Below, piece by piece: positions 3,851-25,121 of a stretch of 64,000 bases of DNA (positions are counted from its first letter, which is position 1; every line of letters begins with the position of its first letter). Source of the stretch: Trichormus sp. ATA11-4-KO1 (lineage in GTDB: Bacteria; Cyanobacteriota; Cyanobacteriia; Cyanobacteriales; Nostocaceae); assembly GCA_019358915.1 (NCBI GenBank), contig JAHHIM010000010.1:1-64000 (forward strand). Reading direction: 5' to 3'. Under the pieces are notes generated by a model. The model made no database searches and was not told the origin of the DNA. It saw only the letters and a program-made list of their open reading frames with translations. The position numbers and the translations under genes are program-made.

Positions 3851-3875
3851 CTGACCCCGCGTTTTACAACCAAAA

Positions 3876-4669: not shown

Positions 4670-4773
4670 GGCGTTGCTGAATCAAGGGCTGATCCTTGTA
4701 GGGTAGGCAGCGCTCAGTCGAACGCTTCCCATCCCACAAAACCAGCAAAATCATCCCACAAATATGCAATGCC
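4670..4773. mobile_element. MITE-like element with GGCGTTGC...GCAATGCC ends
   Basis: Imperfect terminal inverted repeats like the element at 10473-10587; no clear target duplication. Confidence 0.5.
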
Positions 4774-4783
4774 ATCATTCCTT

Positions 4784-4814
4784 ACTCAGCACTCAGCACT
4801 CAGCACTCAGCACT
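4784..4814. repeat. STRR-type heptamer tandem repeat (ACTCAGC)n
   Basis: actcagc x4 plus act. Confidence 0.9.
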
Positions 4815-4821
4815 TAAAAAG

Positions 4822-5166: not shown

Positions 5167-5220
5167 TCTATTTTAACTGCGCCGAGAGCCACATAAAAAT
5201 AAATTCAAAGGAATTATGCA

Positions 5221-7368: not shown

Positions 7369-7675
7369 TTTGGGGAGTGGGGAGTAGGGCAGGGCTGTTT
7401 CATTCGCTTGTGTTGGAGATTTGTCAAGAGGATAATCTCACGCAAAGGCGCAAAGACGCAAAGAAAAATCAGGTATTTCGGACTGAAGATGCCAAAATTT
7501 TTGGTCTTAATTGTGGATTTGCCCTTGCAATTTTAACCCTTTTAGGGAACGAATCAGCCCTGGGGAGTAGGGGAGCAAACAAACTCTTATTCTTCCTCGT
7601 TCTCCTCGTCTCCCCTTGAGGTAATTTATTTTGCCTTTACCCATGACCGATGATCAGTAACAGAGATAAGATAAG

Positions 7676-7912
7676 ATATCTTGCACCAGGTGACTAGAAG
7701 TCACGGCTATACAAACATAAGGCCACCTACGTGGGTTTGAACCCTAGTCTTTTCAACGTGTAATGTATTTTTCTTGGTGTCTTAGTGGTAAAAAAATAAC
7801 TTTTGAACCACAACGGCACAAAGACGAGCCAGGCTTTGGGCGGCTCCGCCGACTTGTAGCAACTGGCGTACAAAGGTGGAAAGCCTAAAATTTTGTCCTA
7901 GGTGCAAGATAT
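7676..7912. mobile_element. MITE-like composite element with nested dispersed repeats
   Basis: 12-bp perfect inverted ends ATATCTTGCACC (7676-7687) / GGTGCAAGATAT (7901-7912); internal REP/SDR-like units also seen near 18857, 45582 and 63909. Confidence 0.55.
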
Positions 7913-7958
7913 GAGCAAACGAACCTTTAAAATTTAAAATGGTGTGAGGCGTCTGGGA

Positions 7959-8456
7959 ATGAAATATCTTTCGTATTTAGTTCCGGTTTTAGCGGCTGGC
8001 TCAGTCTTGAGTATGGCTATCGATATTCAACCAGCACAGGCTCAAGTAGCTTATGGTAGCTATGTCGGTGTCGGGCCGACTGTGGGAATTACTGATGGGA
8101 TTCAAATTGGCGGGGTCGTAGCTGTCCGCTACAAACTTTTGGAAGCACCGATTTCTTTTCGCGCTCAAGCTTTAGTTGGTAGGAATACGGCAGTTGTACC
8201 TACAGTTTCCTACGACCTGCCACTTAACTGGCAAACTGATGCCTACTTGGGTGCTGGTTTGGTGTTAGCTGGTGGTGACAGTTCTTCTCCTGTGGGTAAT
8301 AAAATCAGTTTTGCTTTACAACCAGGAATTGATTACATTGTCCCAAATAGTAATACTGTGATTTTTGGCAATGCCATCATTGCTTTTGATGCTTACCGTG
8401 AAGGTGGCGGTGGTGCGGCTGTCTCTTTACAAGGTGGTGTAGGTTTGAGATTTTAA
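7959..8456 (+). CDS. Outer-membrane beta-barrel-like protein
   Basis: Signal peptide ending AQA, alternating beta-strand pattern, C-terminal GVGLRF; ATG 7959 preferred over GTG 7944. Confidence 0.7.
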   Translation: MKYLSYLVPVLAAGSVLSMAIDIQPAQAQVAYGSYVGVGPTVGITDGIQIGGVVAVRYKLLEAPISFRAQALVGRNTAVVPTVSYDLPLNWQTDAYLGAGLVLAGGDSSSPVGNKISFALQPGIDYIVPNSNTVIFGNAIIAFDAYREGGGGAAVSLQGGVGLRF

Positions 8457-8482
8457 TCGCGAAGGCTGGACTACAAATTTTA

Positions 8483-9973
8483 TCAGGATGCTGTGTTCAG
8501 TTCTGGCGATTTGAAATTAAAGCTTTGGAAACTGGGAGTTAAATAATTCTTGATTAAGCGACCAAGAATTTCAATTCCCTGTTCAATATCCTCTGGTGTG
8601 TGGCAAAAGTTTAACCGCATAGCTGGATAGCCTTGTCCTGGAAAAAATACGGCACCGTTGGCAACAAGGATATTATGAGATAAGGCTTCTCGGCAAATTG
8701 CCTGAATGGGTAAATGATCTGGCAGATGAGTCCACAAAAATAAACCGCCTTTGGGAATAGTCCAGGCGATCGCATCGGGAAAATAATGTTCTAATGCTTG
8801 TAGCATCACATTCCGGCTTTGTAAGTTACTAGTCCGCAAACGACTCAGGTGACGGCGGTAATGTCCTGAACCGAGAAACTCACTGACAATTGCCTGAGAT
8901 ACCGTAGAGACGTGCAGGTCATTTAGTAATTTTTGCTTAACTAGATGCTGATAATGTTCACCTGTGACTACCATGTAACCAACTCTTAATCCAGGCATCA
9001 GGGTTTTCGAGAATGTACTGATGTAGGTAACCAAATTGTGGCGATCTAGTGCCTTGATGGGAGCAGGAACAGGTTCAAAATTTAACCCTTCATAGGCATT
9101 ATCTTCCAAAATCAGACACTCATACTCTTGTGCCAACGCCAGTAATTTTTGGCGATGTACCTGAGAAGTTGTGATGCCTGTGGGATTATGTAGGGTGCTG
9201 ATGGTATAAATTAATTTTGGTCTGTGACTTTGAAGATACTGCTCCAGCAATTCTAAATTCATGCCCTCCGCAGTCATGGGAATTCCTATAACCTTGGCTC
9301 CCAAGTTTTCCAAAATACCCAATGCACCATGATAAGTTGGTGTCTCTACAATTACCCAATCACTCGGCTGGAGATAGTATTGCATTGCTAGCGATAGAGC
9401 TTGTTCTGAGCCAGTGGTAATAATTATTTCTTCAGGAGAAACCTCTAATCCTTGTGGCACTAACATCTGAGCAATCAATTGTCGCAGAAGCAGTTGCCCT
9501 TGGGGAAAATCATATTTAAAGAGGGTATCTGTGGCTTTCATCATTGCCCGCTTGGCAATTCGTTGGAGATTGTTTGAGCTAGAATTATGCGGAAAACCTG
9601 AACTGAAGTCAATAATATTTGACTGTTGTTGAGCCTGTAGTGAAGCTATATATTGTTCAGAGAATGACCCTCCCCCTTCGGAAATGATTACCTTTTGGGC
9701 TGGGGCAAAGTGCGAGCGCAATGTAAAATCAGAAGCTATACGGTTAACAAAATATCCTGAACCTTGGCGAGCATAAATCAGTCCATCGGCTTCTAAGAGA
9801 CTGTAAGCCTCAATTACAGTCAATTTGTTGACTTGAATACTTTCGGACAACGCTCTAATGGAGGGAAGTTTTTGTCCAGCAGGGATTTTGCCAGATTGAA
9901 TCAGACGACTCAGATAATCACGAATTTGCAGATAAATAGGCTTTTGTGAGTGCCGATCTAAGGGAATAATCAC
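8483..9973 (-). CDS. MocR/GabR-family regulator (GntR HTH + PLP aminotransferase domain)
   Basis: GntR HTH (LPSIRALS...GSGYFV), PLP motifs HNPTG, ILEDNAY, STFSKTLMPGLRVGY; GTG 9973 preceded by AGGAGG. Confidence 0.92.
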   Translation of the reverse strand: MIIPLDRHSQKPIYLQIRDYLSRLIQSGKIPAGQKLPSIRALSESIQVNKLTVIEAYSLLEADGLIYARQGSGYFVNRIASDFTLRSHFAPAQKVIISEGGGSFSEQYIASLQAQQQSNIIDFSSGFPHNSSSNNLQRIAKRAMMKATDTLFKYDFPQGQLLLRQLIAQMLVPQGLEVSPEEIIITTGSEQALSLAMQYYLQPSDWVIVETPTYHGALGILENLGAKVIGIPMTAEGMNLELLEQYLQSHRPKLIYTISTLHNPTGITTSQVHRQKLLALAQEYECLILEDNAYEGLNFEPVPAPIKALDRHNLVTYISTFSKTLMPGLRVGYMVVTGEHYQHLVKQKLLNDLHVSTVSQAIVSEFLGSGHYRRHLSRLRTSNLQSRNVMLQALEHYFPDAIAWTIPKGGLFLWTHLPDHLPIQAICREALSHNILVANGAVFFPGQGYPAMRLNFCHTPEDIEQGIEILGRLIKNYLTPSFQSFNFKSPELNTAS

Positions 9974-10041
9974 AGCGCCACCCCTCCTTAAGGACGATAG
10001 CAAGGACTATGGGCAATATAAGGGATTTTTTGGCGCTTTAA

Positions 10042-10123
10042 CTGGTACAGTTGAGAGCAATTCGACTAGAACAGTGAGAATTGCTACTACTGTACTAGTG
10101 CAAATTGTCTAAATCTGTACCTT
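10042..10123. promoter_or_regulatory. Candidate operator array between divergent genes (repeats of CT(A/G)G(T/A)ACAGT)
   Basis: Direct copies at 10042 and 10066; inverted copies at 10089 and (partial) 10114. Confidence 0.45.
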
Positions 10124-10182
10124 CTCACAAAGCTGTTACCAAGCGAATCTAGAAAGTATCTGATGTTCGCTTGAGGGTGGAG

Positions 10183-10410
10183 ATGAAAATAGTTGACGCA
10201 TGGTTGCAGCTAGAATCAAAATTCCAAAGAGTTTGGCAGAGCTTAGTTACAGCACTATCAACCAGTAATGAATTACAAGTTTGGCAGAAAAGCGATCGCT
10301 TTGGGCATATTTTTTGGCAAGCCTATAACCCCGCAACAGGTTGTTCTGCTTGTTTTGGCTCTGAAGAGGAAATACGAGTGTGGATTGAGATGCAATATTA
10401 TTCTAGGTAA
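10183..10410 (+). CDS. Small hypothetical protein, divergent from the MocR regulator
   Basis: ORF with W-rich motif WQAYNPATG...FGSEEEIRVWIE. Confidence 0.7.
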   Translation: MKIVDAWLQLESKFQRVWQSLVTALSTSNELQVWQKSDRFGHIFWQAYNPATGCSACFGSEEEIRVWIEMQYYSR

Positions 10411-10472
10411 TCTACGTAACCAAGTAAGTCGTCATCAATAATTAAAGGTTTGTAGTCAGGACTTTAGTCCTG

Positions 10473-10587
10473 GGCGTTGCTGATTGAAAATATGAATTTG
10501 TTTCACGCAGAGTCGCAGAGTCGCAGAGAGTAAGAGTTTGAAAGATGAAGTTTTTGAATTTCATATCCTGATTAAGCAACCAACGCC
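10473..10587. mobile_element. MITE with 8-bp target-site duplication
   Basis: Ends GGCGTTG...CAACGCC with internal inverted ATATGAA/TTCATAT; flanked by TAGTCCTG at 10465-10472 and 10588-10595. Confidence 0.8.
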
Positions 10588-10696
10588 TAGTCCTGAATTA
10601 AGGGCTGTACTGCTTCGCAGAACCCGTAGGGTAGCCCTTACATAAATCAAATAGTAGTCCTATATGTATAGGCTATGTACTCTGATTTTCCCCAGT

Positions 10697-11470
10697 TTAA
10701 GACAGCAAGCTAGCAGAATTCACATCTAAAAATAACGTTGCTGACAATTGTTGTCTCAAAATTGATGCTGGACAATTGGTGCTAATTGATCCTTGTAACA
10801 TCTCTTTTACCACCTGTGCCTTACGTTTTTCTGGTGCTAGGCAAATAATTTTTTTCGCTGCACAAATCAAAGGCAAAGTCACAGTAAAAGCGTACTGCGG
10901 AACACTATCGATGTTGGGGAAATGTCCTGTATTAACTTGTTGCTGGCGATTTGCTGTATCTAATTTCACCAGTTTTACGCTGTAAGGATCTTGAAAGTTG
11001 GCCACGGCTGGATCGTTAAAAGCCAAATGTCCATTTTCACCAACACCAAGACAACATAAATCAATTGGCTGTGCTTGCAATAATTTGGTGTAGCGATCGC
11101 ACTCGGCTACAGGTTCCAATGCATCACCTTCAATATAATGAAACTGCTGGGGACACACCCGCTTTTCTACACGTTCTCGCATATATCGCCGGAAACTAGC
11201 AGGATGGTCAGCAGTCACTCCCAAATATTCATCTAAATGAAATAAGGTAATTCGCGACCAATCTACACCACCCAACGGTATCAAAGCATCAAGAAATTTG
11301 AGTTGGGAATTTCCTGTTGCTAATAGGACAGCAGCTGTATCCTGCTGCTGAAGAACTTGCTGTAAATACTTTTGGGTGATTTCTGCAACATCTTGCGCCA
11401 TTTCAGCTTCAGAGTTGTAAATCTGCACTAATAAATCATCGACACGAAAAAGTTTTGTAGCGGCTAGCAT
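10697..11470 (-). CDS. nagB: Glucosamine-6-phosphate deaminase family protein
   Basis: LATGNSQ, FHLDEYLG, LGVGENGHLAFNDP, CPASILR motifs. Confidence 0.85.
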   Translation of the reverse strand: MLAATKLFRVDDLLVQIYNSEAEMAQDVAEITQKYLQQVLQQQDTAAVLLATGNSQLKFLDALIPLGGVDWSRITLFHLDEYLGVTADHPASFRRYMRERVEKRVCPQQFHYIEGDALEPVAECDRYTKLLQAQPIDLCCLGVGENGHLAFNDPAVANFQDPYSVKLVKLDTANRQQQVNTGHFPNIDSVPQYAFTVTLPLICAAKKIICLAPEKRKAQVVKEMLQGSISTNCPASILRQQLSATLFLDVNSASLLS

Positions 11471-11669
11471 TTGCTTACACGGAATATTGTAACTTGAGGA
11501 GCAATCCTTGTCTTCCCCTGACGTACCTTTTTCAGTATAGATTTCAGGATTTAGCTAATTGATGATAGTTTTTTGTCTGGATATTAACCTAGGCACAACG
11601 ATTGAGGACAAAAAACCATGTAAACTATGTAAATTAAGTTAACAATTATTTACAATTTACCAAAAAATC

Positions 11670-12359
11670 ATGCTATCTGCAATTCTCTTTGACTTAGACG
11701 GCACTATCGTCAATACTGACCCTATACATTTCCAAGCTTGGCAGAAAATGCTGTTAAGTTACGGGATGGAAATTGATGAAACATTCTACAAATCCCGGAT
11801 TAGTGGCGGGTTAAACCCGGAAATCGTCAAAGATATTTTGCCACAATTATCAGTAGCTGAAGGTCAAAAATTTGCAGATGAAAAAGAGGCACTTTTTCGC
11901 CAACTCGCCCCGGGTCTCCAGCCGTTACCTGGATTTGCGGAATTAATCGCATGGACAGAAACACATCAGCTAAAACGTGCTTTAGTAACAAATGCTCCTA
12001 GATTAAATGCAGCATTTATGCTAGAGGTTTTAGGAATAAAAGAAGCATTCCACACAATTGTGTTAGCAGACGATTGTACCGCAGGTAAACCCGACCCTGA
12101 ACCATATCAAGTTGCTTTGAATAACTTGGGAATTAACGCAGAACAAGCGATCGCCTTAGAAGATTCTCCCTCTGGTATTCGGGCAGCCGTCGGTGCTAAT
12201 ATTCGCACTATTGGTATAGCTTCCACCCATGAGCCACAAATATTGCAGCAAATTGGCTCATTGATGGCAATTCCCGATTTTACTGATTTGCAGTTGTGGG
12301 CATTTCTAAATTCTTTGATAGATTCAGATTTAAGTGCGATCGGCAAAGCCGCGCCGTAG
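11670..12359 (+). CDS. HAD-superfamily phosphatase (beta-PGM/CbbY-like)
   Basis: FDLDGT, VTNA, GKPDPEPY, LEDSPSG motifs. Confidence 0.92.
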   Translation: MLSAILFDLDGTIVNTDPIHFQAWQKMLLSYGMEIDETFYKSRISGGLNPEIVKDILPQLSVAEGQKFADEKEALFRQLAPGLQPLPGFAELIAWTETHQLKRALVTNAPRLNAAFMLEVLGIKEAFHTIVLADDCTAGKPDPEPYQVALNNLGINAEQAIALEDSPSGIRAAVGANIRTIGIASTHEPQILQQIGSLMAIPDFTDLQLWAFLNSLIDSDLSAIGKAAP

Positions 12360-12663
12360 GCGATCGCACCTAAATTTGAGTTTAAATCTGGCAGCAATCT
12401 CAATGACTGTGTGCAGACAGGGAGCATCCCTATTTTTTTCCAAAACCCAACACACAGCCTTCATTATACCAAACTTAAAGAAGGAAGAAGTCTTCTTCCT
12501 TCTGACTTGAAAGTGCTGAGTGCGCTTGTCCTGAGCGAAGTCGAAGGGGAGTACTGAGTGCTGAGTAAAAATTCCAGTCTCTAGCTTCTAGTCTCTCTTT
12601 CATACTTGGCTGTGAAACTCGTTTCATCGGAACTTCCCTCTGACTTCGTTAAAGTATTGAGCT

Positions 12664-13764
12664 TCACAAATTCAAAGGAGCGTAGATATCCTCAGAATGG
12701 GGATTGAGGTAAGGACGTTGTAATTCAATTTGCTGCTTCGAGAAATGTTGCAGAATTGCTGTCATCCGACTTTCTGGTGTATCGTTATCTTGATGCCAAA
12801 CCTCAAGCAAAGCATTGGCAATAATTTGACAGCGATTCAGACCAAAACTTTCTCGGTCAGTAAATTTGCTATTTGGTTCTTCAGCCAGAGCTAAACCTGG
12901 TGCTAGCAATTTGGTAAACAAAGGTACTGATTCGCCAAAATGGGATTGATTTTCTGTATACACCCTTTCTAATACTGGGTGAACAGTTTCATAGTTGTGT
13001 TTGTCAAAATAAAGTACTGCGGAGTCGCAACGTCCATAATCTGAGGGATTATATAATGCTTTAAATGTGAAGGGAATTGATAGAGCGTTGAGTTGAGTGG
13101 TTAAACTGTCCATGACAGCAACTGACCCATCTGGGGTTAAATTAAAGTAAATACGCACTATCTCCTGGTCACCATGAGCGGCTGCATCACCAATTGCCAT
13201 ATAAAATCCACTCTGCACCACATTTTTGGGCATTTTGATCGCCACTAAATCACCAACATTCACAGCTTGGTCTTCTGGTTGTAAGTGAACTTCGCGCTCA
13301 ATGTGCAATGTCAAGCCATTCTTATGCACTGCTAAAGCGCCATCTGTTTCTTCTTTCACCACTAGCCAATCGTAGCTCAAGTAGCCTTTACCTCTGTTGC
13401 TGTTATGCAAGCGATCATAAAAAGCTACATCTACGCCCAAAAAGCTGTTATTTTCTAGACTTTGGCTCAATGCTACATCTGTTGTCTCTTCATCTGATAT
13501 GAGAGTATGTTTCAAAGAACCGTTGTAGTAGACTCCATACAAAAAACTACGCAGTTGCAGACCTAAATACTTATTTTGGAGATCCAATGGCAATTTTTTA
13601 AAGCGGGAAATTGCCTGCTCTGACATCTCTAAGGTTTTATAATCTGGATGCTTAATACAATGGTAAGACTCGATTTCAATCTTATAAATAATGTCTTGTA
13701 GTGATGTCTGCAATGGCTCTGGAATACTGGCTAGTTGAGTTTGTAGCGCATCTAATAGTTGCAT
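12664..13764 (-). CDS. HopA1-family protein; LanY/LxmY-like phospho-Ser/Thr lyase subunit
   Basis: Motifs VRIYFNL, FTFKAL, GRCDSAVLY, GLALAEEP, ESFGLNRC; directly downstream of an APH-family kinase gene. Confidence 0.8.
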   Translation of the reverse strand: MQLLDALQTQLASIPEPLQTSLQDIIYKIEIESYHCIKHPDYKTLEMSEQAISRFKKLPLDLQNKYLGLQLRSFLYGVYYNGSLKHTLISDEETTDVALSQSLENNSFLGVDVAFYDRLHNSNRGKGYLSYDWLVVKEETDGALAVHKNGLTLHIEREVHLQPEDQAVNVGDLVAIKMPKNVVQSGFYMAIGDAAAHGDQEIVRIYFNLTPDGSVAVMDSLTTQLNALSIPFTFKALYNPSDYGRCDSAVLYFDKHNYETVHPVLERVYTENQSHFGESVPLFTKLLAPGLALAEEPNSKFTDRESFGLNRCQIIANALLEVWHQDNDTPESRMTAILQHFSKQQIELQRPYLNPHSEDIYAPLNL

Positions 13765-13886
13765 AAGAGCTTACCTATGAATAAGAGAGTGTAATGGGGA
13801 ATGGGGAGTGGGGAATGGGAAATAGGAAGAGACAAGATTGGCTGAAAGGTGCTTTGTATTTCAGCCAACTTTGCTGCTCTAGTTTT

Positions 13887-15065
13887 TTAAGCGCGTGATA
13901 ACTTTGTGGGAACTAAATCTGATGTTTCCATACCAAAAATCGTTGGGATGGATGCGTCTGGACGGCATAATAAACTTTTGGCAACCTGGAGCATTGAGAT
14001 ACCAGGATTACCAAAGGTTTTTTCGTGCTGGAGTGTTGCTTGAATTGATTGAATCAAGGCTAGACCACAAAATTGCACTACTCGTTGTAAAAAATCAGGA
14101 CGCTGCTCTAGAATTTCCGGGAATTCAGCTAAATAAGCGGTAACTAGTGCAGAAATCGAAGGACGGAGTGATTGTAGTGGGGTTGTAGCTAGGCGTAAAG
14201 ATTCTTCGATCGCCATTCCTCTACCGACGACTACACTGTATAACCATAATTGCAGGTAGCTGGCAAGCAATGCGCCTAAGTCAATCGCGGGATCTCCCCA
14301 TGAACAGCGTTCCCAGTCAATTAAGCGAATGATGCTTTCGTCTGCGAAAGATCCATTTACATTCACTTCTTCCCAATTTAAGGAAATGAGAATATTGTTT
14401 AGCTTCATGTCATTATGGGTCAAACAGTGGGGAGTGTAAGCACTACCCAACTCTGCGATCGCCTGACCCAAACTGTCATAACGTTGATAAAGAGCAAAGA
14501 ATTTCAACCCATCAGCAGGAACACTACCAAAAATTTCTGGGGTAATTCTATCGATGCGATGATTTAGTTTTGCAGCTTCTTGACTTGATGTATCCTGAGA
14601 ATTTTGCCAGTATTCCCGATACTCAGGACGTTGGATACTGACGCGATGCATTGATGCCAAAGTAGTTCCAACTATTGTGGCAATCTTTGTGGGAAAAACG
14701 TTCTCTTTTGTATAGAAATCCGCTACATCGCGATAGTTACTAAGATAATTGAAAATAATGATGGAGTTTTCAACGTCAAAATGCACTGCTTCTGAAATAG
14801 AAGCGCGCAAATAGCTAATTTCTGGATTTTTTTGCAAAAACTCGTGAATTCGCCATTCTTGCACAAATTCACCGGCAGTTTTTCCTTCTCGATTGTGACG
14901 CTCTTGCTTAACTAGAAGTTGGCGATCGTCAGGTAAGCTGAGTAACAAGTTAAAATTTTTGGCAGGTTTTAGTTCAATCTTGCTCGATAAACGTTCTTCT
15001 TGCGTACACAGTCCCAGGGGGATTAGGTAGTCAAAAACATTCTGGTCACTTAATAAAAATGGCAT
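13887..15065 (-). CDS. APH-family phosphotransferase; LanK/LxmK-like peptide Ser/Thr kinase
   Basis: LLVKQE (ATP lysine), Brenner motif THNDMKLNNILI, IDWE metal-binding loop, GDPAIDLG. Confidence 0.85.
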   Translation of the reverse strand: MPFLLSDQNVFDYLIPLGLCTQEERLSSKIELKPAKNFNLLLSLPDDRQLLVKQERHNREGKTAGEFVQEWRIHEFLQKNPEISYLRASISEAVHFDVENSIIIFNYLSNYRDVADFYTKENVFPTKIATIVGTTLASMHRVSIQRPEYREYWQNSQDTSSQEAAKLNHRIDRITPEIFGSVPADGLKFFALYQRYDSLGQAIAELGSAYTPHCLTHNDMKLNNILISLNWEEVNVNGSFADESIIRLIDWERCSWGDPAIDLGALLASYLQLWLYSVVVGRGMAIEESLRLATTPLQSLRPSISALVTAYLAEFPEILEQRPDFLQRVVQFCGLALIQSIQATLQHEKTFGNPGISMLQVAKSLLCRPDASIPTIFGMETSDLVPTKLSRA

Positions 15066-15176
15066 GGCTTCAGATACTTCTTAGTAAAGTAAAAACTTGT
15101 TGTTGGTCAATCAGGAAACTGTAAAACCACAGGAATGCTATCCAAGCATTGATTGCACACAACATCTTATTAGTCA

Positions 15177-15461
15177 TCATGTCAATTGGTGATTCAACAA
15201 TAAAGAAGGGACAAACAGATAAGATGAATAATCAAATTGGGCAGCAGCAAATGACTGTGCTAGCGACACAATGCTGTAAATTCCAAATGCCGATAACACA
15301 AAATCAAGGAGCGTATAAGCAAAGTTAAGAAATTGATGGAACCCATAGTGATATGCATAGTTAGTACCACCATGTACAGACAGAGAATACATATCAGTTA
15401 TTTCGATCAAAAAGCTTTCTGAGTCAGTAGGTTGCAGTTCAGAAATTATTATTTTTGCCAT
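15177..15461 (-). CDS. Divergent RiPP precursor-like peptide (GG leader)
   Basis: Leader MAKIIISEL...DSESFLIEI...VHGG; core retains the xFGIxxxxxLAxSF pattern of the neighbours. Confidence 0.7.
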   Translation of the reverse strand: MAKIIISELQPTDSESFLIEITDMYSLSVHGGTNYAYHYGFHQFLNFAYTLLDFVLSAFGIYSIVSLAQSFAAAQFDYSSYLFVPSLLLNHQLT

Positions 15462-15740
15462 TTATTTAATTTCTACACAAATTCTTGAGCAATTAGTCAA
15501 TGTCAGATAAATTCAGTCATTGACATGAAAAATTTGTGAATTTCCTTCTTTCTCTTGACCTGCTTTCTCTGTTTACTCAGCGTTAGCCAGTTTCAGAAAC
15601 CTCTCTTCCAAACGGCTTGCTGTCTCACTACTGCTCATCTACATCTCAAAAAAGTAATTTCCCAACTCAAATAAGATTGCTATAGATTACTTCTTACCTT
15701 AATCTAAGAAGCGCCATTTAACTCAGTAGTTAACTAAAAA

Positions 15741-15977
15741 CTAGTATCGACGATATGGATAGGGTGCACTATATGACTTGGCTACATAAGTAGCATGACC
15801 AATGCCATATGTTGTTACAAATGCCCCAGTCAATGCGGTAAATAAAAAGCCGCCGACAACAGCATATTCATCCCTAGACAGAGAGTCTGCGTCACTGAGT
15901 TCATTGAGAAAACTTTCAGAATCTTGAAACAGTGTAGAACCAGTAGTGTATAGTTGAGAAAGGGTAATATTTGCCAT
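15741..15977 (-). CDS. RiPP precursor peptide (variant with shifted GG)
   Basis: Leader LFQDSESFLNELSD, GG after DEYAVV, core YGIGHATYVAKSYS; AGGAG RBS. Confidence 0.8.
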   Translation of the reverse strand: MANITLSQLYTTGSTLFQDSESFLNELSDADSLSRDEYAVVGGFLFTALTGAFVTTYGIGHATYVAKSYSAPYPYRRY

Positions 15978-16116
15978 AATTTACTCCTAAAAGACTTGTT
16001 GTAATTTCTGGCTCTCAGGGATTATTGGTAATTAAGACACCTGATGTTAAATGCAAAGATGACTTTTTACTTTTCATCCCCAAAGAGCCATTTATCTCAG
16101 TAGTTACCTAGAAGAA

Positions 16117-16380
16117 TTAGTAGATTCCAGCTACACTGAATGACTTAGCTAAGTAGGTCACATGCTCAATGCCATATGTATAGACATAGGCTTCAGCTAG
16201 CTTAGTCAGTGTCATAGGATTGCTAGCAGCGTAGGTAGCACCTGTAGCTACGGTAGCACCGTAACCAATTTGACCACCAGAGATAGAATCTACATCGCTC
16301 AGTTCATTCAAGAAACTTTCGGAATCTTGAAACAATTCAGAACCAGCAGCGTGTAATTCAGAAAGAGTGATATTTGCCAT
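16117..16380 (-). CDS. RiPP precursor peptide (GG leader)
   Basis: Leader MANITLSELHAAGSELFQDSESFLNELSDVDSISGG; AGGAG RBS; paralogous to neighbours. Confidence 0.88.
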   Translation of the reverse strand: MANITLSELHAAGSELFQDSESFLNELSDVDSISGGQIGYGATVATGATYAASNPMTLTKLAEAYVYTYGIEHVTYLAKSFSVAGIY

Positions 16381-16551
16381 GATGTACTCCTAAAAGACTT
16401 GTGAAGACTTGTTTCAGTGAAAATTGAGAGAGTTGAATTTGCCTGGCTCTCAGGGATTATTGGTAATTAAGACACCTGATGTTAAATGCAAAGATGACTT
16501 TTTACTTTTCATCCCCAAAGAGCCATTTATCTCAGTAGTTACCTAGAAGAA

Positions 16552-16809
16552 TTAGTAGATTCCAGCTACACTGAATGACTTAGCTAAGTAGGTCACATGC
16601 TCAATGCTATATACATAGACAAAGGCTTCAGCCAGCTTAGTCAGTGTTAAATTATTGCTGACAGCAGCTTGAGTAGCAGCAGTAGCACCGTAGCCAATTT
16701 GACCACCAGAGATAGAATCTACATCGCTCAGTTCATTCAAAAAACTTTCAGAATCTTGAAACAATTCAGAACCAGCAGCGTGTAGTTGAGATAGAGTGAT
16801 ATTTGCCAT
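16552..16809 (-). CDS. RiPP precursor peptide (GG leader)
   Basis: Same leader and conserved TLTKLAEAF...HVTYLAKSFS segment. Confidence 0.88.
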   Translation of the reverse strand: MANITLSQLHAAGSELFQDSESFLNELSDVDSISGGQIGYGATAATQAAVSNNLTLTKLAEAFVYVYSIEHVTYLAKSFSVAGIY

Positions 16810-16986
16810 GATGTACTCCTAAAAGACTTGTGAGACTTGTTTGTTGCAGTCAAGACCAAGATGGTGTCTAGCCGACTCTCAGGGATTATTGGTAATCAAG
16901 ACACCTGATGTTGATACATAGGTAAATTGTTACTTTTAATCCCTGAAGAGCCATCAATCTCAGTAGCTACCCGGAGTCGTCATCAT

Positions 16987-17238
16987 TTATTGGGGCGCAC
17001 TAAATGACTTGGCTAAGTAGGTAACGTGACCAATGCCATACACATAAACAAAAGCTTCAGCTAGCTTAGTTAATGTCTTAGGATCGCTAACAGCGACTTG
17101 AGCGGCAGTGACACCACCAAAGCCAAGTTGACCACCAGAGATGGAATCTACATCGCTGAGTTCATTAAGAAAACTTTCTGAATCTTGGAAAAGTTCAGAA
17201 CCAGCAGCATGTAGTTCAGACAGTGTAATATTTGCCAT
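16987..17238 (-). CDS. RiPP precursor peptide (GG leader)
   Basis: Same leader and conserved C-terminal segment. Confidence 0.88.
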   Translation of the reverse strand: MANITLSELHAAGSELFQDSESFLNELSDVDSISGGQLGFGGVTAAQVAVSDPKTLTKLAEAFVYVYGIGHVTYLAKSFSAPQ

Positions 17239-17399
17239 GATGTACTCCTAAAAGACTTGTTGTAATGAAACTGAAGATTGCTCAGTTTAGCTAGACCTCA
17301 GGGATTATTGGTGATAACAAAAGTTTTTGTTCATCGTATAGATGACTTTTTACCTTTAATCCCTGGCAAACCATCAAGCACAGTAGTGACCCAGAACCA

Positions 17400-17645
17400 T
17401 TAAATTCCAGTTACACTGAATGATTTGGCTAACACCGTAACGTGACCAATGGCATAGATATTGACAAAAGCCCCAGCTAACTTAGTCAGTGTCGCAGGAT
17501 TGCTGACACCGACTTGAGTGGCGCCGTAGCCGATTTGTCCACCAGAGATGGAATCTACATCACTGAGTTCATTAAGAAAACTTTCAGAATCTTGGAAAAG
17601 CTCAGAACCAGCTGCGTGTAGTTCAGACAGTGTAATATTTGCCAT
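17400..17645 (-). CDS. RiPP precursor peptide (GG leader)
   Basis: Same leader and conserved C-terminal segment. Confidence 0.88.
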   Translation of the reverse strand: MANITLSELHAAGSELFQDSESFLNELSDVDSISGGQIGYGATQVGVSNPATLTKLAGAFVNIYAIGHVTVLAKSFSVTGI

Positions 17646-17818
17646 GATTTACTCCTAAAGGACTTGACTTGTCCCAATTAAGCAATTCAATTCAAAATTG
17701 TTCAACCCGCCCGGCTCTTAGGGATTATTGGTAATAAAAACTTTATGTTATTGGTTACATAAAATAGTTTTACCTTTCATCCCTGAAGAGCCATCTAGCT
17801 CCTAGTTACCTGAAGCCA

Positions 17819-18070
17819 TTAGTATGCGTAACTGAATGACTTAGCTAAGTAGGTGACATGCCCGATGCTATATGTAAAGACAAAGGCTTCAGCTAGCTTA
17901 GTCAGTGTGGAAATATCGCTGACACCTTCGTAGCCAGCAGCACCGGTATAACCGTAGGTGCTACCACCAGAAATGGAATCTACATCACTTAGTTCATTGA
18001 GAAAACTCTCAGAATCGTGAAACAATTCAGAACCAGTAGCGTGTAGTTCAGAGAGTGCAATCTTTGCCAT
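17819..18070 (-). CDS. RiPP precursor peptide (GG leader), first of the tandem run
   Basis: Near-identical leader, conserved C-terminal segment, GAGGAG RBS. Confidence 0.88.
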   Translation of the reverse strand: MAKIALSELHATGSELFHDSESFLNELSDVDSISGGSTYGYTGAAGYEGVSDISTLTKLAEAFVFTYSIGHVTYLAKSFSYAY

Positions 18071-18341
18071 ATAAGCTCCTCAAGCATTGTTGCTAGTAAA
18101 TAAAACTGGTGAACAATTAAGCTGTGTTTTGCTTAACTGTTACTGCTATTTTTATTTATCAAAAATCAGAAAGTCAAGACTAGAAACCTGGTTAAAAAGA
18201 CATATATGACTGATTTGTGTCTTACTGAAACTGTAGTTTTAGTCTAATGCTTTAGCGATACACGGTTTTTAGAGAGTCTGCCTAAGCTTACGGTACGCTT
18301 TCAATTGCCAGGGATTTCTCAAGTTGATAATTACTACAAAA

Positions 18342-18381
18342 ATCGTGCATTCTCAAGCTAGTTAGATTGAGAATGCACGAT
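18342..18381 (-). terminator. Intrinsic terminator-like hairpin after the 18407-18667 gene
   Basis: 15-bp perfect stem ATCGTGCATTCTCAA/TTGAGAATGCACGAT followed by a T run on the minus strand. Confidence 0.7.
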
Positions 18382-18406
18382 ACTAAAATATAAATTTAAG
18401 TAGAAT

Positions 18407-18667
18407 TCAGAGCAAATCTAATTCCTCACTAACTCGATTGCGAGTGAGAGAAAGTGTTTCATCAATTTGTGACCTTAAACTAAATAGAAACCCATTTAAA
18501 TTTTGATCAAATGTGTCTACTAAAGATTGTTCATTGATATTGGATGTATTTGGTGATACTATGCTTCCTTGACCGCCTTCTATTATCTTCATTTCTCCAT
18601 TGGTTATTTCATTCAAAGGCTGTTCTTTATTACTTGGATACAAATCAGCAATTTTTATCTTTGCCAT
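18407..18667 (-). CDS. GG-leader peptide with an unrelated, acidic core
   Basis: MAKIKIADL...LNEITNGEMKIIEGG leader; GGGAG RBS. Confidence 0.65.
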   Translation of the reverse strand: MAKIKIADLYPSNKEQPLNEITNGEMKIIEGGQGSIVSPNTSNINEQSLVDTFDQNLNGFLFSLRSQIDETLSLTRNRVSEELDLL

Positions 18668-19172
18668 GTCATTAACTCCCTAAATACTTACGATGAAATT
18701 TAACTAGCACGACTTTGAATATGATTAAGCTTCAAATCTAAAATCTCTCTTCTATTTTGCAATTTAATTTTAAAAAGTCAATGGTTTCAACCATTTTTAT
18801 AGACAAAATTAAAGGATTTATGTCTTGAAAAGAAATGATTTTTTAGATCGCCCACAGACTAGAAGTCTGGGGCTACACATAGGAGCGATAGCTTCGCTAA
18901 CGCGGAGGTGGCGTAAAGCCCTACGGGCATGGCTGCGCTTAAAGCCATAGCGTGCCGGAGGCTCTTTTCCAATCGCCCGGTGTTTTTGCAAAGGATGTAA
19001 AAAAAATTGTAGGTTGGGTTGAACGCGAAACCCAACCTTGTATCTTATACGGAGAGTATTGTTAGGTAGTGGGTTACGGCTACCCCTAAAGCTCTCTACA
19101 AATTTTCTAGGTGAATAAAATATTGCGATCGCACAGCGAAATTATAATCACTATATATTCTGGCTGACACTG

Positions 19173-20500: not shown

Positions 20501-20886
20501 GTTTATATCCCCGTTAGGGGAAGAGATTATGTAAAGGGCAGTGGCGTACCCACTCGCCTGGAGATTGGCGTTTACATCCCCGTTAGGGGAAGAGGTTATG
20601 TAAAGCGTGCTGGCAAGTAGGCGCTGAAGTGTTTAAGTTTACATCCCCGTTAGGGGAAGAGATTATGTAAAGAGGCAAATACTGATATGCAAAACGCATG
20701 TCAGGAATGTTTACATCCCCGTTAGGGGAAGAGGTTATGTAAAGGTGTGCCAGGCGATGCCTATAACCGTCGTTCGGAGAGTTTACATCCCCGTTAGGGG
20801 AAGAGGTTATGTAAAGCTGGTTGCTCTATGTTTTTCTTGTTTGTCTATTTGTTTACATCCCCGTTAGGGGAAGAGGTTATGTAAAG
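20501..20886 (-). CRISPR. CRISPR array 1: 6 repeats, 5 spacers (33, 31, 36, 36, 34 nt)
   Basis: 36-nt repeat GTTTACATCCCCGTTAGGGGAAGAGGTTATGTAAAG (+ strand) at 20501, 20570, 20637, 20709, 20781, 20851; most degenerate copy on the left and leader on the right imply minus-strand transcription. Confidence 0.97.
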
Positions 20887-21217
20887 AGTTCACGTCTGAA
20901 AGCTTGACTAGGACTGACTTTCAGACCCCCTAATCGACACACCTCTGAAATTTGACAAAAAACTTGCCAAAAATCATCAATTTTGTCGGTTGAAACCCTT
21001 GCTGTGTCAAGCATCGACACAGTTCAACGAAGTTATGCGGTTTTCAAGGTTCGGCGGAGGTGTGTAGATGAAACTCACAAGCTTGTTAAAACAGTAAGAT
21101 ATGTGGCTGATCACTGTCAAGATTGTTACAAAAACTTAAAGTGAGAGGCTCAGATACCCGACTTCTTGAAGAAGTCGGGGATCTTTATTGTTCGTGAGGT
21201 CATTCAAGAGCGATCGC
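20887..21217 (-). promoter_or_regulatory. CRISPR leader 1 and upstream region up to a HIP1 site
   Basis: Homologous to 22981-23312 and 35307-35743. Confidence 0.8.
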
Positions 21218-21246
21218 ACTGACTGAGAATGAGGGGATGCGATCGC
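21210..21246. repeat. HIP1-bracketed element copy A (GCGATCGC-ACTGACTGAGAATGAGGGGAT-GCGATCGC)
   Basis: Same core at 21944, 22735 and 24126. Confidence 0.9.
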
Positions 21247-21271
21247 AGTTTCCCTGTTACCCAATATATAT

Positions 21272-21874
21272 TTAGGCTGCAAATACTTGCTCAACTGTAA
21301 AATTTAATTCTGGGAAAGTGGGAGATACAATTTTATCTGTCCCTCGGTAAGCATTTGATTGATAAATACCTTGTTCATTGAGAACATATACAAAAATTGT
21401 GGGTTCTTTGGGATTACCTAAATAATTACGACTACCAATAGCTAAATAATCAACAATCCAATATTCATAAATACCTAAACGTTGATATTCTTCAAGTTTA
21501 TCTATATAGTCATCTTCCCAATTTGTGGAAACTATTTCTACAGCTAATTGTAAAGGTTCAACAAAAGCAGTATATGCAGATAAATTAGCATCCCATAGAT
21601 TTTTATCTACTACGCTAACATCAGGTACACGGCCTTGTTCTTGACCACTTGCGGTTAAGGTTCTAATTGTAATTCTTCCCGATACTCTGTAATTAAGATT
21701 CAGACGTTCAACTTCTTGATCTAATTTTTTGGTGATAAAATCTGCTAAATTATCATGTTTTCTGGTTGCTTGTATCCGCATTATTTCTCCATTTATAAGT
21801 TCATATCGACCTTCTTCGGGAAAGTTGTAGTTAAGGAATTGCTCAAAAGTGAGTCTGTTTTTAGTTAGAGTCAT
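21272..21874 (-). CDS. Uma2-family (DUF820) putative endonuclease
   Basis: RYELINGE, PDVSVV, LAVEIVS, KLEEYQRLGIYEYWIVD motifs. Confidence 0.92.
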   Translation of the reverse strand: MTLTKNRLTFEQFLNYNFPEEGRYELINGEIMRIQATRKHDNLADFITKKLDQEVERLNLNYRVSGRITIRTLTASGQEQGRVPDVSVVDKNLWDANLSAYTAFVEPLQLAVEIVSTNWEDDYIDKLEEYQRLGIYEYWIVDYLAIGSRNYLGNPKEPTIFVYVLNEQGIYQSNAYRGTDKIVSPTFPELNFTVEQVFAA

Positions 21875-21885
21875 ATTTTTTTATT

Positions 21886-21980
21886 TTTTTCTGATGAGAA
21901 TTAAATAACAAATGCGATCGCATTATATATAGATATTTTACGAGCGATCGCACTGACTGAGAATGAGGGGATGCGATCGT
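21886..21980. repeat. HIP1-bracketed element copy B (extended form with three HIP1-like sites)
   Basis: TTTTTCTGATGAGAATTAAATAACAAAT-HIP1-ATTATATATAGATATTTTACGA-HIP1-core-GCGATCGT. Confidence 0.9.
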
Positions 21981-22032
21981 TTGTTTTATCTTGTGATGTG
22001 ATATGCACATCCTCAACACTTAATACTTAAAT

Positions 22033-22383
22033 TCATGATTCATTAGTTTCTCCATTTAACATATCCATGACTACAGCTTTTAATGATGGTAAAAAATTAT
22101 GCACTGTTGCCCATACTACTGCTACATCCACTTGCCAGTATTCATGTACTAGTATATCTCTCATTCCTGCTATAGCTTGCCAAGGAATCTCTGAATAACT
22201 GTTGCGCTTGTCATCAGGAATTTTTTTCACTGCTTCGCCAATGATTTCTAATAGCTTGACTACCGCCAAAGTCTTTTCTCTATTTGCTTTAAAAGCATCA
22301 AAATTGATACCGTTGACAAAAAACTCAACTTCGGTAATAGCGTCTAGAATATCTTGTAAAAATTCCGTATAGCTGCGTTTCAT
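22033..22383 (-). CDS. HEPN/DUF86 toxin (HepT-like RNase)
   Basis: LEIIGEA, IPW..IAGMRDILVHEY (R-x4-H motif). Confidence 0.92.
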   Translation of the reverse strand: MKRSYTEFLQDILDAITEVEFFVNGINFDAFKANREKTLAVVKLLEIIGEAVKKIPDDKRNSYSEIPWQAIAGMRDILVHEYWQVDVAVVWATVHNFLPSLKAVVMDMLNGETNES

Positions 22384-22673
22384 ATATAGATAGTCTCAGA
22401 TAACACGCGATCCCGAATACGAGGCTTTAGTCCATTTTTAGTGACAATATCTACCTTTAAGTCAAACGCTTGACTCAAATAATCTTTCAGTTGAGCTAAT
22501 TTAATAAAAGTCGGCGCTGTTTCATAGTCAACCAGAATATCCACATCACTAAATTCTGTCTGTTCTCCTCTTGCATAAGATCCAAAAATACCTAGTTGTG
22601 TAATTTGATAAGTTTCACACAGGTATTGTTTTTGTGCTAATAAAATTTGCTTTAACTCATTAATAGTTTTCAT
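22380..22673 (-). CDS. Minimal nucleotidyltransferase antitoxin (MntA-like)
   Basis: FGSYARGE...SDVDILVD motif; 4-nt overlap with the HEPN gene. Confidence 0.92.
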   Translation of the reverse strand: MKTINELKQILLAQKQYLCETYQITQLGIFGSYARGEQTEFSDVDILVDYETAPTFIKLAQLKDYLSQAFDLKVDIVTKNGLKPRIRDRVLSETIYI

Positions 22674-22771
22674 TTTTCTCTGATGAGAGTTAAATAACCA
22701 ATGCGATCACACTATATATATAGTTATTTTACGAGCGATCGCACTGACTGAGGATGAGAGGATGCGATCGT
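22674..22771. repeat. HIP1-bracketed element copy C (extended form)
   Basis: Near-identical to copy B; begins directly upstream of the MNT start codon. Confidence 0.9.
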
Positions 22772-22796
22772 TTTATAGATAGATTGATTTTTGAAG

Positions 22797-22980
22797 GTTT
22801 TAATCCCCGTTAGGGGAAGAGGTTATGTAAAGTAATGGCGGTAACTTCCAGTGGATGGAACCTGTGGTGTTTACATCCCCGTTAGGGGAAGAGGTTATGT
22901 AAAGTGTTCCGCATTGACAAAGCACCGGTGGATGACGTGATTGGGTTTACATCCCCGTTAGGGGAAGAGGTTATGTAAAG
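22797..22980 (-). CRISPR. CRISPR array 2: 3 repeats, 2 spacers (36, 40 nt)
   Basis: Same repeat as array 1 at 22797 (degenerate GTTTTAATCC...), 22869 and 22945. Confidence 0.95.
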
Positions 22981-23312
22981 AGTTCACATCTAGAAGCCTT
23001 GCAGTGAGGAGGTTACAGACCCCCAATTCGACACCACTTTTTTCTTTAACCAAAGAAATTTCATAAGTCGCGGCTTTTGTAGCCTAAAACCCTTACTGTG
23101 CAAGCAATCGACACCAGTCAACGAATTTATGCGGTTTTCAAGGTTCTGGTGAGTGGTGTCGAAGATATTGAACACACTAGATAAAAAAGTAGGATATGTG
23201 GCTTATCGCTGTCAAGATTGTTATAAAAACTTAAAGTGAGAGGCTCAGATCCCCGACTTCTTCAAGAAGTCGGGGATCTTTATTGTTCGTGAGGTCATTC
23301 AAGAGCGATCGC
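22981..23312 (-). promoter_or_regulatory. CRISPR leader 2 and upstream region up to a HIP1 site
   Basis: Homologous to leaders 1 and 3. Confidence 0.8.
23247..23279. repeat. Palindromic dispersed repeat (second copy at 21152-21184)
   Basis: AGATCCCCGACTTCTT-C-AAGAAGTCGGGGATCT, 16-bp perfect arms. Confidence 0.85.
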
Positions 23313-24741: not shown

Positions 24742-25121
24742 GTGATTTACTCCAAGGAAATTAATGTTATTTTTGGGCTTAACCAAGATATCTGCCAGAT
24801 TAAAGCATAAAATCGCCACTGTTTAAAATCAAAGTATAAAAATGTAAACACTGCTATCTTGTGAGATAGATCACTGACAGACTAGATAAGTTAACAAATG
24901 AGGTGAGTAATTGAATAAAATTTTTACTAAAGAAAATTAATTTTTATTACTAACTCTAGAAAATTAAGAAATATTGAATTTTTTTGGTTTTATTGAAAAC
25001 TCAGTGTGAAATAGTATAAATCTTTAATAGATAAAATTATTACCTGCTTCACAAAGTCTATTAGGTGAAAAAAATAACTGCTAATAGGTTTGTGCTACTT
25101 ATTAATGATTGCTTTAACGCC

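Follow-up and report, generated by a model that had tools for sequence, protein, structure and literature searches.

Background

Class V lanthipeptides such as cacaoidin and lexapeptide are made with a separate APH-fold kinase and HopA1-like lyase (CaoK/CaoY and LxmK/LxmY; PMC9486802, PMC12141560, PDB 9DK1), and the CaoKY pair dehydrates its substrate CaoA eight times. In cyanobacteria, the HopA1/phosphotransferase Family 1A of Eyles (2021; PMC8153245) comprises 570 peptides in 183 clusters. Unlinked dehydroamino acids are also known from Nostoc punctiforme, where the Cys-free peptides NpnA3 and NpnA6 carry them (bioRxiv 10.64898/2026.08.14.744816).

The locus analysed here lies in a 64,000-nucleotide stretch of DNA (the window) from Trichormus sp. 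ATA11-4-KO1. Judged from its sequence, it is a member of Family 1A, which is catalogued and chemically uncharacterised: a cyanobacterial HopA1 protein stands beside a phosphotransferase, and the several non-identical precursors share a conserved GG leader but have no Cys in common. The Eyles dataset contains 193 hits to DSESFL, 44 to LAKSFS and 41 to TLTKLAEA, the last being the number of peptides with the core motif; at least 32 of the TLTKLAEA rows belong to network 1, whose cyanobacterial rows are taken as Family 1A on our reading of that paper. The cluster type, which a first-pass annotation of this DNA could not assign, had thus been catalogued in 2021, and peptides with the same core motif are in that dataset. 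The first-pass view that the locus cannot be assigned to a chemically characterised RiPP class stands; the catalogued family has no characterised product, and none was found for this cluster type in the literature searched.

It is probable, though by no means assured, that the LanK/LanY-like pair produces exported, unbridged, hydrophobic, predicted-helical peptides bearing Dha or Dhb. Linear Dha/Dhb peptides were among the products proposed in the first-pass annotation, and they are the best reading of an intact enzyme pair with Cys-free GG-leader peptides.

Gene content and order

The cluster consists of ten open reading frames, all on the minus strand, with the co-oriented peptide genes p1-p8 upstream of an APH-type kinase gene and a HopA1-family gene, as first annotated (Table 1). 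Each of p1-p7 has a GGAG ribosome-binding site. The leaders of p2-p6 are near-identical, sharing 31-36 of 36 residues; p1 lacks the DSESFL leader motif, and in p7 the GG ends at residue 43 instead of 36, a form also found in Nodularia-like relatives.

Table 1. Features of the peptide cluster, with positions in the window
Feature	Position	Strand	Details
p1, type A peptide, first gene of array	18407..18667	-	acidic amphipathic core; GG leader without DSESFL; without KSF motif
hairpin 3' of p1	18342..18381	-	near-perfect; 19-nt arms, 95% complementary; z -3.7
p2, type B precursor	17819..18070	-	36-aa leader ending GG, 47-aa core
conserved spacer hairpin 3' of p2	17713..17792	-	z -5.1
p3, type B precursor	17400..17645	-	from ORF and leader comparison
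homologous spacer hairpin 3' of p3	17293..17373	-	weak fold, z -0.9
p4, type B precursor	16987..17238	-	core predicted to form a single helix (residues 53-78) that stops at conserved Ser78
spacer hairpin 3' of p4	16873..16952	-	z -3.4
p5, type B precursor	16552..16809	-	from ORF and leader comparison
spacer hairpin 3' of p5	16444..16525	-	z -2.8
p6, type B precursor	16117..16380	-	from ORF and leader comparison
spacer hairpin 3' of p6	16009..16090	-	z -3.1
p7, type B' precursor	15741..15977	-	GG at residue 43, 35-aa core
p8, type C precursor, adjoins kinase gene	15177..15461	-	short leader, more hydrophobic core, QSF replacing KSF
LanK-like APH-fold Ser/Thr kinase	13887..15065	-	K53, H217-D219-K221-N224 and D250-E252 present
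LanY-like HopA1-family phosphoSer/Thr lyase	12664..13764	-	R204, K235, R245, Y252 correspond to CaoY R187, K219, R229, Y236

For comparison, 57 loci were collected; 14 (L053-L066), which are non-cyanobacterial partial kinase matches, were left out to give 43 loci, and four of these (L021, L023, L025, L034) have no core, leaving 39 KSF loci. One peptide with unread letters was excluded ahead of the counts. The gene order is fixed across the related loci as A, Bn, C, kinase, lyase, with an A-type gene first in 27 of the 29 that have at least 4 kb upstream. The neighbouring genes for a HAD hydrolase, glucosamine-6-phosphate deaminase and MocR occur together in only one of 43 loci (L010) and were not counted as belonging to the cluster; an upstream D-Ala-D-Ala dipeptidase gene is in no shared cluster.

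Precursor peptides

As first noted, none of the eight precursors contains Cys. The depletion extends to 229 related peptides, which have 7 Cys in 18,795 residues compared with about 180 expected at the genome's 0.96% (the rows are kin, which overstates the significance), and to 10,592 core residues across the peptide family, which have 3. Lanthionine and AviCys products are therefore excluded, as had been concluded. Among the cores, described at first pass as rich in Ser, Thr, Ala, Gly and Tyr, that of p1 is of a different type, being acidic and lacking Tyr.

The core is a helix with the pattern K-x18-K-S-(F/Y)-S, found only in Nostocaceae among the genomes sampled. In the AlphaFold prediction for p4, the helix spans residues 53-78, with pLDDT 84-87 over residues 61-80; a complex prediction with four p4 cores scored 0.01 (mark 0.42). 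The core helix has a dN/dS of 0.06-0.14 in four groups, and the cores are under purifying selection, not hypervariable, which is new here. When segments are anchored on the motif Ser (Ser0), this residue is present in 97% of rows, partly by construction; in an unanchored count of open reading frames, [KRQEH]S[FYV] occurs in 186 of 222 and KS[FY]S in 149 of 222. Most other core Ser/Thr are unconserved, at no more than 45% per position. The first-pass annotation named a conserved Lys and a conserved His. Of 160 unique segments, 132 have Lys at exactly -20, a spacing that the anchoring does not impose. The His is conserved in only part of the family: His is at -7 or -4 in 100 of the 160 segments and at neither in 60.

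These residues bear on the main rival, in which dehydration is followed by non-thioether cross-linking to give stapled peptides or covalent oligomers after export. His(-7/-4) would add to Dha0 within the helix, and Lys(-20) or Lys(-1) to the Dha0 of a neighbouring chain; Lys(-20) lies 30 A from Ser0 along the helix, so its bond would be interchain. Besides the frequency of Lys(-20) and His(-7/-4), the geometry is favourable, with -7 on the same helix face as Ser0 and -4 likewise by the 100-degree rule. In Nostoc, nostolanthin oligomerises covalently via a free dehydro residue, which its authors propose to be widespread (bioRxiv 10.64898/2026.08.14.744816), but nostolanthin has a free Cys. Moreover, no cyclase or other shared tailoring gene was found across the 39 loci, 60 of the 160 segments have no His at either position, and the two Lys may simply border a stretch of hydrophobic residues (mean hydropathy 1.24). 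Addition of thiols to Dha is far faster than that of amines or imidazoles. We regard cross-linking as a serious yet rather unlikely outcome. Distinctly less likely is a Nostocaceae-wide structural RiPP, in which helical B subunits, produced in bulk from the tandem genes, would be exported and joined as a covalent surface polymer through Lys/His-to-Dha bonds at K-S-(F/Y)-S, with the peptides fixed in first (A) and last (C) place as minor nucleating or capping subunits; if true, class V dehydratase chemistry would here serve a structural purpose and form no thioethers.

The core profile gave 36 hits among 1.84 billion representatives, 35 of them short peptides of the same family or fragments; the 36th, an unrelated repeat protein, was rejected as spurious. 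Against the PDB the same profile found nothing (best E 0.24), and the named homologues among the best 120 of 523 are all annotated as hypothetical or uncharacterised. A plasmid search gave three records, two of them cyanobacterial and full-length, none above 60% identity.

Kinase and lyase

Profile comparison, which the first-pass annotation had proposed, labels both enzymes. The HopA1-family ORF matches PF17914 (E 7e-62) and the kinase ORF matches APH PF01636 (E 1.5e-9), but the kinase misses the cut-off of the LxmK equivalog NF038156 (84.5 bits, cut-off 315) and is thus related to LxmK, not a member. The streptomycete enzymes are distant (LxmY E 6e-6, LxmK E 0.011), which weighs against the favoured reading, whose chemistry rests on homology to them. 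The kinase motifs of Table 1 are presumably functional, their roles being taken from general kinase knowledge. The catalytic Arg, Lys, Arg and Tyr of the lyase were mapped onto CaoY via equal spacing in the LxmY (9DK1_B) alignment, and three of the four mapped CaoY residues have been tested by mutagenesis. A single-sequence AlphaFold model of the lyase has a mean pLDDT of 40.9 and was set aside.

All 43 related loci retain the four catalytic residues of the lyase, as do all of a further 20 that have leader peptides close by. Dehydration is for this reason likelier than phosphopeptides as end products, in which the HopA1 protein would be only a kinase scaffold. That rival draws on a paralogous HopA1 protein, paired with an intact kinase in this genome and across the family, that lacks the catalytic Lys: the peptide-less paralogues have Gln or Glu at this position in 21 of 21 sampled. 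Kinase-only chemistry therefore seems to exist in the lineage. However, the Lys-less proteins group in a clade of their own (SH-aLRT 99; quick unrooted tree), for which none of 20 loci has a leader peptide within about 4 kb, and the lyase retains its Lys in all loci that have peptides. Phosphopeptide products, also put forward in the first-pass annotation, are thus highly improbable. The Lys-less, peptide-less pair, apparently Nostocaceae-wide, is a separate unexplained lead.

Reduction of Dha/Dhb in trans to D-Ala/D-Abu, in the manner of LanJ, is similarly remote. An aldo-keto reductase gene lies directly 3' of the lyase gene in 13 of 20 same-leader sister loci, NpnJ is a Nostoc precedent, and the main KSF lyase clade is placed among these reductase-bearing lineages, in a quick unrooted tree from which the order of events is unreadable. 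Yet the sister reductase's action on dehydro residues is only putative, and its gene is present in 12 of 38 core-bearing genomes and none of the 39 KSF loci. The absence of a reductase from the locus had been noted, and the sister-cluster enzyme was not found elsewhere in this genome either.

Exporter and other genes

The statement that the locus has no C39 exporter is accurate for the locus itself, but the suggested genome search found a matching cassette on another contig (C73), and in 21 of 39 related loci a C39-ABC gene is within the flanking sequence covered. The closest counterpart of these linked genes in this genome is on C73 (79-93% identity, compared with 46% or less for the runner-up), which identifies the exporter as orthologous; its C39 Cys and His are present. 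An upstream M16 peptidase pair follows the same pattern, being found in 23 of 39 loci and on C73 here. Against the favoured reading, the exporter is unlinked in this genome, which has four other C39 genes.

LanC, HFCD, YcaO and methyltransferase domains, reported absent at first pass, were not found among the window ORFs scanned. Across the 99.9% complete genome, no LanC-like domain (three positive controls) and no YcaO PF02624 (control positive in 5 of 14) was found.

The GG leaders, hydrophobic helical cores and C39 exporter would also suit essentially unmodified multi-component class II bacteriocins, in which the enzymes touch few or no important sites. The low conservation of most core Ser/Thr is consistent with this, as is the top ESM Atlas feature cluster (0.95), which bears the automatic name 'Bacteriocin family protein' and may be the protein's own cluster. 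Nonetheless, 38 of 80 Nostocaceae genomes have the core motif. All 38 carry at least two HopA1 copies, and none of 25 single-copy genomes has the motif, so that the peptides always accompany an extra kinase/lyase pair; relocation of the block in this lineage left them beside the enzymes and not beside the exporter. No conserved immunity gene was found across the 39 loci and no Pfam or NCBIfam bacteriocin model matches the peptides, including the CTB cyanobacterial bacteriocin model NF038167 (none of eight at E 0.1), which does match other peptides of the genome. The chance of unmodified bacteriocins is accordingly slight.

Spacers between the peptide genes

A hairpin follows p1 and each B gene (Table 1). 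Of the 30 B spacers sampled, 28 fold with z below -2, compared with 15 of 40 controls. RNAalifold gave no consensus pairs for 30 spacers, spacer pairs with double changes (8 of 20) were not above shuffles (79 of 500), and Rfam had nothing near gathering score; the null consensus and covariation searches count against a role for the hairpins in the favoured reading. Promoter-like matches in the spacers (25, with 16.5 +/- 4.4 expected) were not accepted as promoters. In one run from a related strain (X1), RNA contigs extend over most of p2-p6 with their spacers and over part of the kinase gene, with DNA carry-over possible; among the pieces listed, the control stretch 1-12600 gave two 151-nt contigs and short partial matches.

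Proposed function

In the favoured reading of unbridged Dha/Dhb peptides, the leader motif DSESFL of p2-p8, perhaps not of p1, would recruit the kinase, which likely phosphorylates Ser/Thr of the Cys-free cores. The lyase would then eliminate phosphoSer/Thr to Dha/Dhb, and the C73-encoded transporter would cut at GG and export the peptides. The key functional site may be the helix-terminal Ser in K-S-(F/Y)-S, the other Ser/Thr being variable. Since CaoKY dehydrates CaoA repeatedly, this focus on one residue may be mistaken, and the pair may act on all 7-12 Ser/Thr. The hairpins may stabilise or attenuate the transcript, giving an excess of B peptides.

As to role, we tentatively favour a product of several components (A + Bn + C), made in bulk and associated with the surface or the membrane, with Dha still reactive after export; a membrane-active bacteriocin is a plausible alternative, and a signal is rather unlikely. 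About half of the Nostocaceae genomes sampled keep the peptides under purifying selection, which argues for a conserved role and not a chemical-diversity library. Heterocyst formation is a trait of Nostocaceae, and the evidence points to a conserved role for the peptides in heterocyst-forming cyanobacteria. For this large family, the outcome of class V-type dehydration in the absence of Cys can be tested directly, and this locus is well suited to it, having two enzymes, a target residue that can be named and an exporter that has been identified.

Comparison with known systems

Eyles (2021; PMC8153245) describes the Family 1A cores as highly variable and without conserved Ser/Thr, whereas this sub-branch has a conserved helix and Ser. 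Variable cores without conserved Ser, Thr or Cys hold across sub-branches, as a family-level description, and not within this one. The conserved helical core, fixed gene order and conserved hairpin after each B gene are new here; the A/B/C order, hairpins and Lys-less paralogue are absent from the available main text of that paper.

Judged from its motifs, the GG leader with a peptidase-bearing ABC exporter resembles GG-leader/C39-exported peptides. Group II bacteriocin clusters with 'HetP-like' precursors and the hetP locus (Wang, Fewer and Sivonen 2011, PMC3140520, as available) likewise have a long cNMP-C39 ABC transporter, HlyD and rotamase with M16 peptidases nearby, and the leader motif KIxDL...E-x10-GG is common to p1 and this genome's HetP. 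The available part of that paper names no kinase, and the three peptide motifs were not found in five of its supplement files.

Thioamitides differ in their YcaO/TfuA enzymes, and both they and AviCys peptides in their C-terminal Cys and HFCD domain. Class V systems are closer, with a separate kinase and lyase of the same apparent LanK and LanY types and the catalytic Arg, Lys, Arg and Tyr conserved. Unlike them, this locus lacks Cys, so that neither lanthionine nor AviMeCys can form, and it has none of HFCD, LanJ and methyltransferase; its kinase is below the LxmK cut-off (84.5 vs 315 bits), and its GG leaders go with a C39 exporter. In the Npn system, NpnA is a substrate of LanM. Nostolanthin differs in being a class II LanM product with a Nif11-type leader, rings and a free Cys, and the Npn system in having the reductase NpnJ, compared with no locus reductase and no LanC-like domain in this genome. 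As Cys-free Nostoc Dha peptides, NpnA3 and NpnA6 nevertheless provide a precedent for this cluster.

A catalogued peptide family with a kinase and a HopA1-family lyase

The locus is genuine and looks intact, and it belongs to a family that is catalogued but uncharacterised. All ten genes of the first-pass annotation are present on the minus strand: eight small peptide genes (type A, p1; type B, p2-p6; type B', p7; type C, p8), a LanK-like kinase and a LanY-like lyase. None of the eight peptides contains Cys, as had been claimed. The shared GG leader holds for p2-p6, in which it is near-identical and 36 residues long, but not throughout: the GG of p7 ends at residue 43, the leader of p8 is shorter, and p1 has neither the DSESFL motif nor the shared core.

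The annotation could place the cluster in no characterised RiPP class. The family is indeed chemically uncharacterised, but it is already catalogued as Family 1A, cyanobacterial HopA1/phosphotransferase peptide clusters, and the accessible parts of that work list close relatives of p1-p8 (Eyles 2021, PMC8153245). Its supplement file 1 already has PPIase and aldo/keto reductase columns, and file 2 holds 41 matching rows. No characterised Family 1A product was found in the literature searched, most subscription papers being outside its reach, and the peptide motifs gave 0 matches in the accessible supplement of Wang 2011 (PMC3140520).

Two orphan type B precursor genes on other contigs (see table) are likely served in trans. 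In many Nostoc-like relatives (first peptide of L027, L030, L032, L036, L038, L039, L048, L051 and L052), the type A core opens with 4-8 Arg right behind the GG, and an acidic amphipathic helix comes next.

Features of the Trichormus genome (G000; C, contig; L, extracted locus) and of related loci
Feature	Location	Remark
Second kinase and HopA1 pair, no adjacent peptides	G000:C55:310579-312967 (L003 7580-9968)	Gln at catalytic Lys of lyase
Orphan type B precursor gene	G000:C3:36037-36270	hairpin element downstream (element identity 77-82% across both orphans)
Orphan type B precursor gene	G000:C65:141314-141550	hairpin element downstream (element identity 77-82% across both orphans)
Exporter cassette	C73 234599-241135	70-93% identical to linked copies of relatives
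HetP-family gene	L009 5328-9998 (G000:C36)	internal KIxDL..LE-x10-GG motif
CTB-family GG-peptide clusters	L006 3918-12505; L007 5476-9788	each with own C39 exporter
Dispersed repeats flanking the block	window, about 12440-12600 and 18830-18990	over 100 and about 30 BLAST matches in densest bins
CRISPR array, two blocks	window, 20501-22997 and 25065-34014	6 + 3 repeats; duplicated flank
Sister clusters with PF00248 aldo-keto reductase and second PPIase	L087-L090, L092-L096, L101, L102, L105, L106

The enzyme pair and its Lys-less paralogue

The profile search proposed in the annotation placed the 366-aa gene in the HopA1 family (PF17914, E 7e-62) and the 392-aa gene in the APH family, but the match of the latter to the class V kinase model LxmK fell below threshold. 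The kinase is 99% identical to that of its nearest named relative, a Nostocales record (L010). Against the PDB, the sole clear match of the lyase was LxmY (9DK1_B, E 6e-6), and the kinase weakly matched the LxmY partner (9DK1_A, E 0.011). The aligned stretch of LxmY carries Arg, Lys, Arg and Tyr at spacings of 32, 10 and 7, those of CaoY R187, K219, R229 and Y236, the first three of which were probed by mutagenesis (Liang 2022). Lyase residues R204, K235, R245 and Y252 align with this quartet, which is conserved in 43/43 related loci; the kinase motifs are conserved in all 44 true kinases aligned.

Twenty further copies of the paralogous lyase on C55 (L067-L086), picked from family genomes as HopA1 matches of about 50% identity, have Gln in 18 cases and Glu in 2 where the catalytic Lys would be, and within about 4 kb of them no leader peptides were found. 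With the C55 copy, Gln or Glu occurs in 21/21 sampled, which form one clade. A HopA1-like match is present in 81/81 family genomes, and by sequence the paralogous pair resembles a kinase of the core genome partnered by a pseudo-lyase. The catalytic Lys is present in 20/20 other loci with leader peptides nearby, one of which holds a degenerate second copy. Because the Lys is kept where peptides are and absent from the peptide-less paralogue, elimination appears to be retained alongside the peptides. Among the options that the annotation had offered, this pattern argues for dehydration rather than phosphopeptides.

A conserved core motif

Cores of types B and C have the pattern K-x2-E...(Y/F)(A/G)I...(L/I)A-K-S-(F/Y)-S in common, 6-30 residues behind the GG. 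Across 160 unique segments anchored on the terminal K-S-(F/Y)-S (KSF), which inflates the frequencies of its Ser (Ser0), Lys-1 and Phe+1, Ser0 reaches 97%, Lys-20 82% and Ser+2 78%, with Ser/Thr elsewhere never above 45%; the set excludes 38 of the 229 peptides, most of them type A. Unanchored, [KRQEH]S[FYV] occurs in 186/222 ORFs and KS[FY]S in 149/222. The stretch between the two Lys is hydrophobic and predicted to form a single helix up to Ser0; its dN/dS is 0.06-0.14 in pooled pairs of kin, with similar values in the leader. A core profile matched 25/37 same-family genomes and 0/263 others in a phylum sample, and 38/80 genomes in a family sample, counts biased by its construction from that family.

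Gene order and probable relocation

Among 57 loci, 43 hold the kinase/lyase pair, 39 of them with KSF cores. The order across relatives is A, several B, C, kinase, lyase, with type A first in 27/29 loci that have enough upstream DNA and type C as the last peptide gene in 31/39 by script and the other 8 by eye. A convergent cassette (HTH, cNMP/C39 ABC, HlyD, parvulin) usually lies downstream (ABC in 21/39 and HlyD in 25/39 loci, many contigs ending early), and an M16 peptidase pair lies upstream of the array in 23/39. No tailoring enzyme common to the 39 KSF loci was found.

The C39 exporter that the annotation suggested seeking elsewhere in the genome is part of the C73 cassette, and the M16 pair is likewise on C73. 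Since both are linked to the array in relatives, the peptide-kinase-lyase block has likely been relocated in the Trichormus genome, as judged from gene order. Dispersed repeats, of which the genome holds many copies, flank the block on either side and may bear on this relocation.

On C36, the internal motif of a HetP-family gene resembles the leader of the p1-p8 cluster family. Next to this gene lies a paralogous cNMP/C39 ABC transporter, presumably HetC, with about 40% identity to the orthologues of the C73 exporter in relatives. Two more GG-peptide clusters are present in the genome. Elsewhere in the window, a Uma2 endonuclease gene and a nucleotidyltransferase/HepT toxin-antitoxin-like pair lie between the CRISPR blocks, and beyond the array lies a type III cas operon with Cas10, Csx10 and RAMPs.

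Spacer hairpins and transcription

The five spacers behind p2-p6 are homologous to one another, and four fold with z -2.8 to -5.1. In relatives, z is below -2 in 28/30 B spacers (sampled from 103), against 15/40 controls and 5/30 C-to-kinase spacers. A stem taken from a single copy pairs in 85% of cells, compared with 29-48% when slid, and 33 stem cells are changed on both sides, a count attained in 0/500 shuffles; the number of stem pairs with two-sided change did not reach significance, and no consensus hairpin for the spacers emerged from RNAalifold. The hairpin likely stabilises or attenuates the transcript. In one RNA run of a related strain, assembled contigs span the greater part of p2-p6 and part of the kinase, which is compatible with their transcription but falls short of showing it.

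Sister clusters with a reductase

Sister clusters have this leader and these enzymes but different cores, mostly Cys-free and rich in Ser/Thr/Asn, and 13/20 add an aldo-keto reductase (PF00248). In these 13 the cores are Ser/Thr/Val/Asn-rich; the clusters could yield D-amino-acid peptides, and their putative reductase may be a new type of LanJ. A quick lyase tree groups 38 KSF rows in one clade (SH-aLRT 98) that sits among lineages bearing the reductase, and a second clade holds 4 more.

Proposed mechanism and product

By analogy with the CaoA leader, for which such a role is a model with mutant support, the leader would recruit the kinase. Phosphorylation of Ser/Thr would be followed by elimination, after which the C73 transporter would cleave the leader and export peptides of 35-62 residues. 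A genome-wide search found no LanC, YcaO or sister-cluster aldo-keto reductase. With no Cys, cyclase or reductase, we lean slightly towards an unbridged product with free Dha/Dhb as the default. Cross-links to Lys/His, or oligomers, forming after dehydration seem rather unlikely: the fixed Lys-20 and a His on the Ser0 face would permit them, and work on nostolanthin shows that oligomers of this kind can form in Nostoc, but nostolanthin has free Cys available (bioRxiv 10.64898/2026.08.14.744816). That the peptides form a covalent structural polymer is quite improbable. Near-identical genes in tandem, their hairpins, the purifying selection and the lack of a conserved immunity gene together point more towards a product made in bulk than towards an arms-race toxin. 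From its sequences, the system would work like a class V dehydratase system, yet its product is not a class V lanthipeptide.
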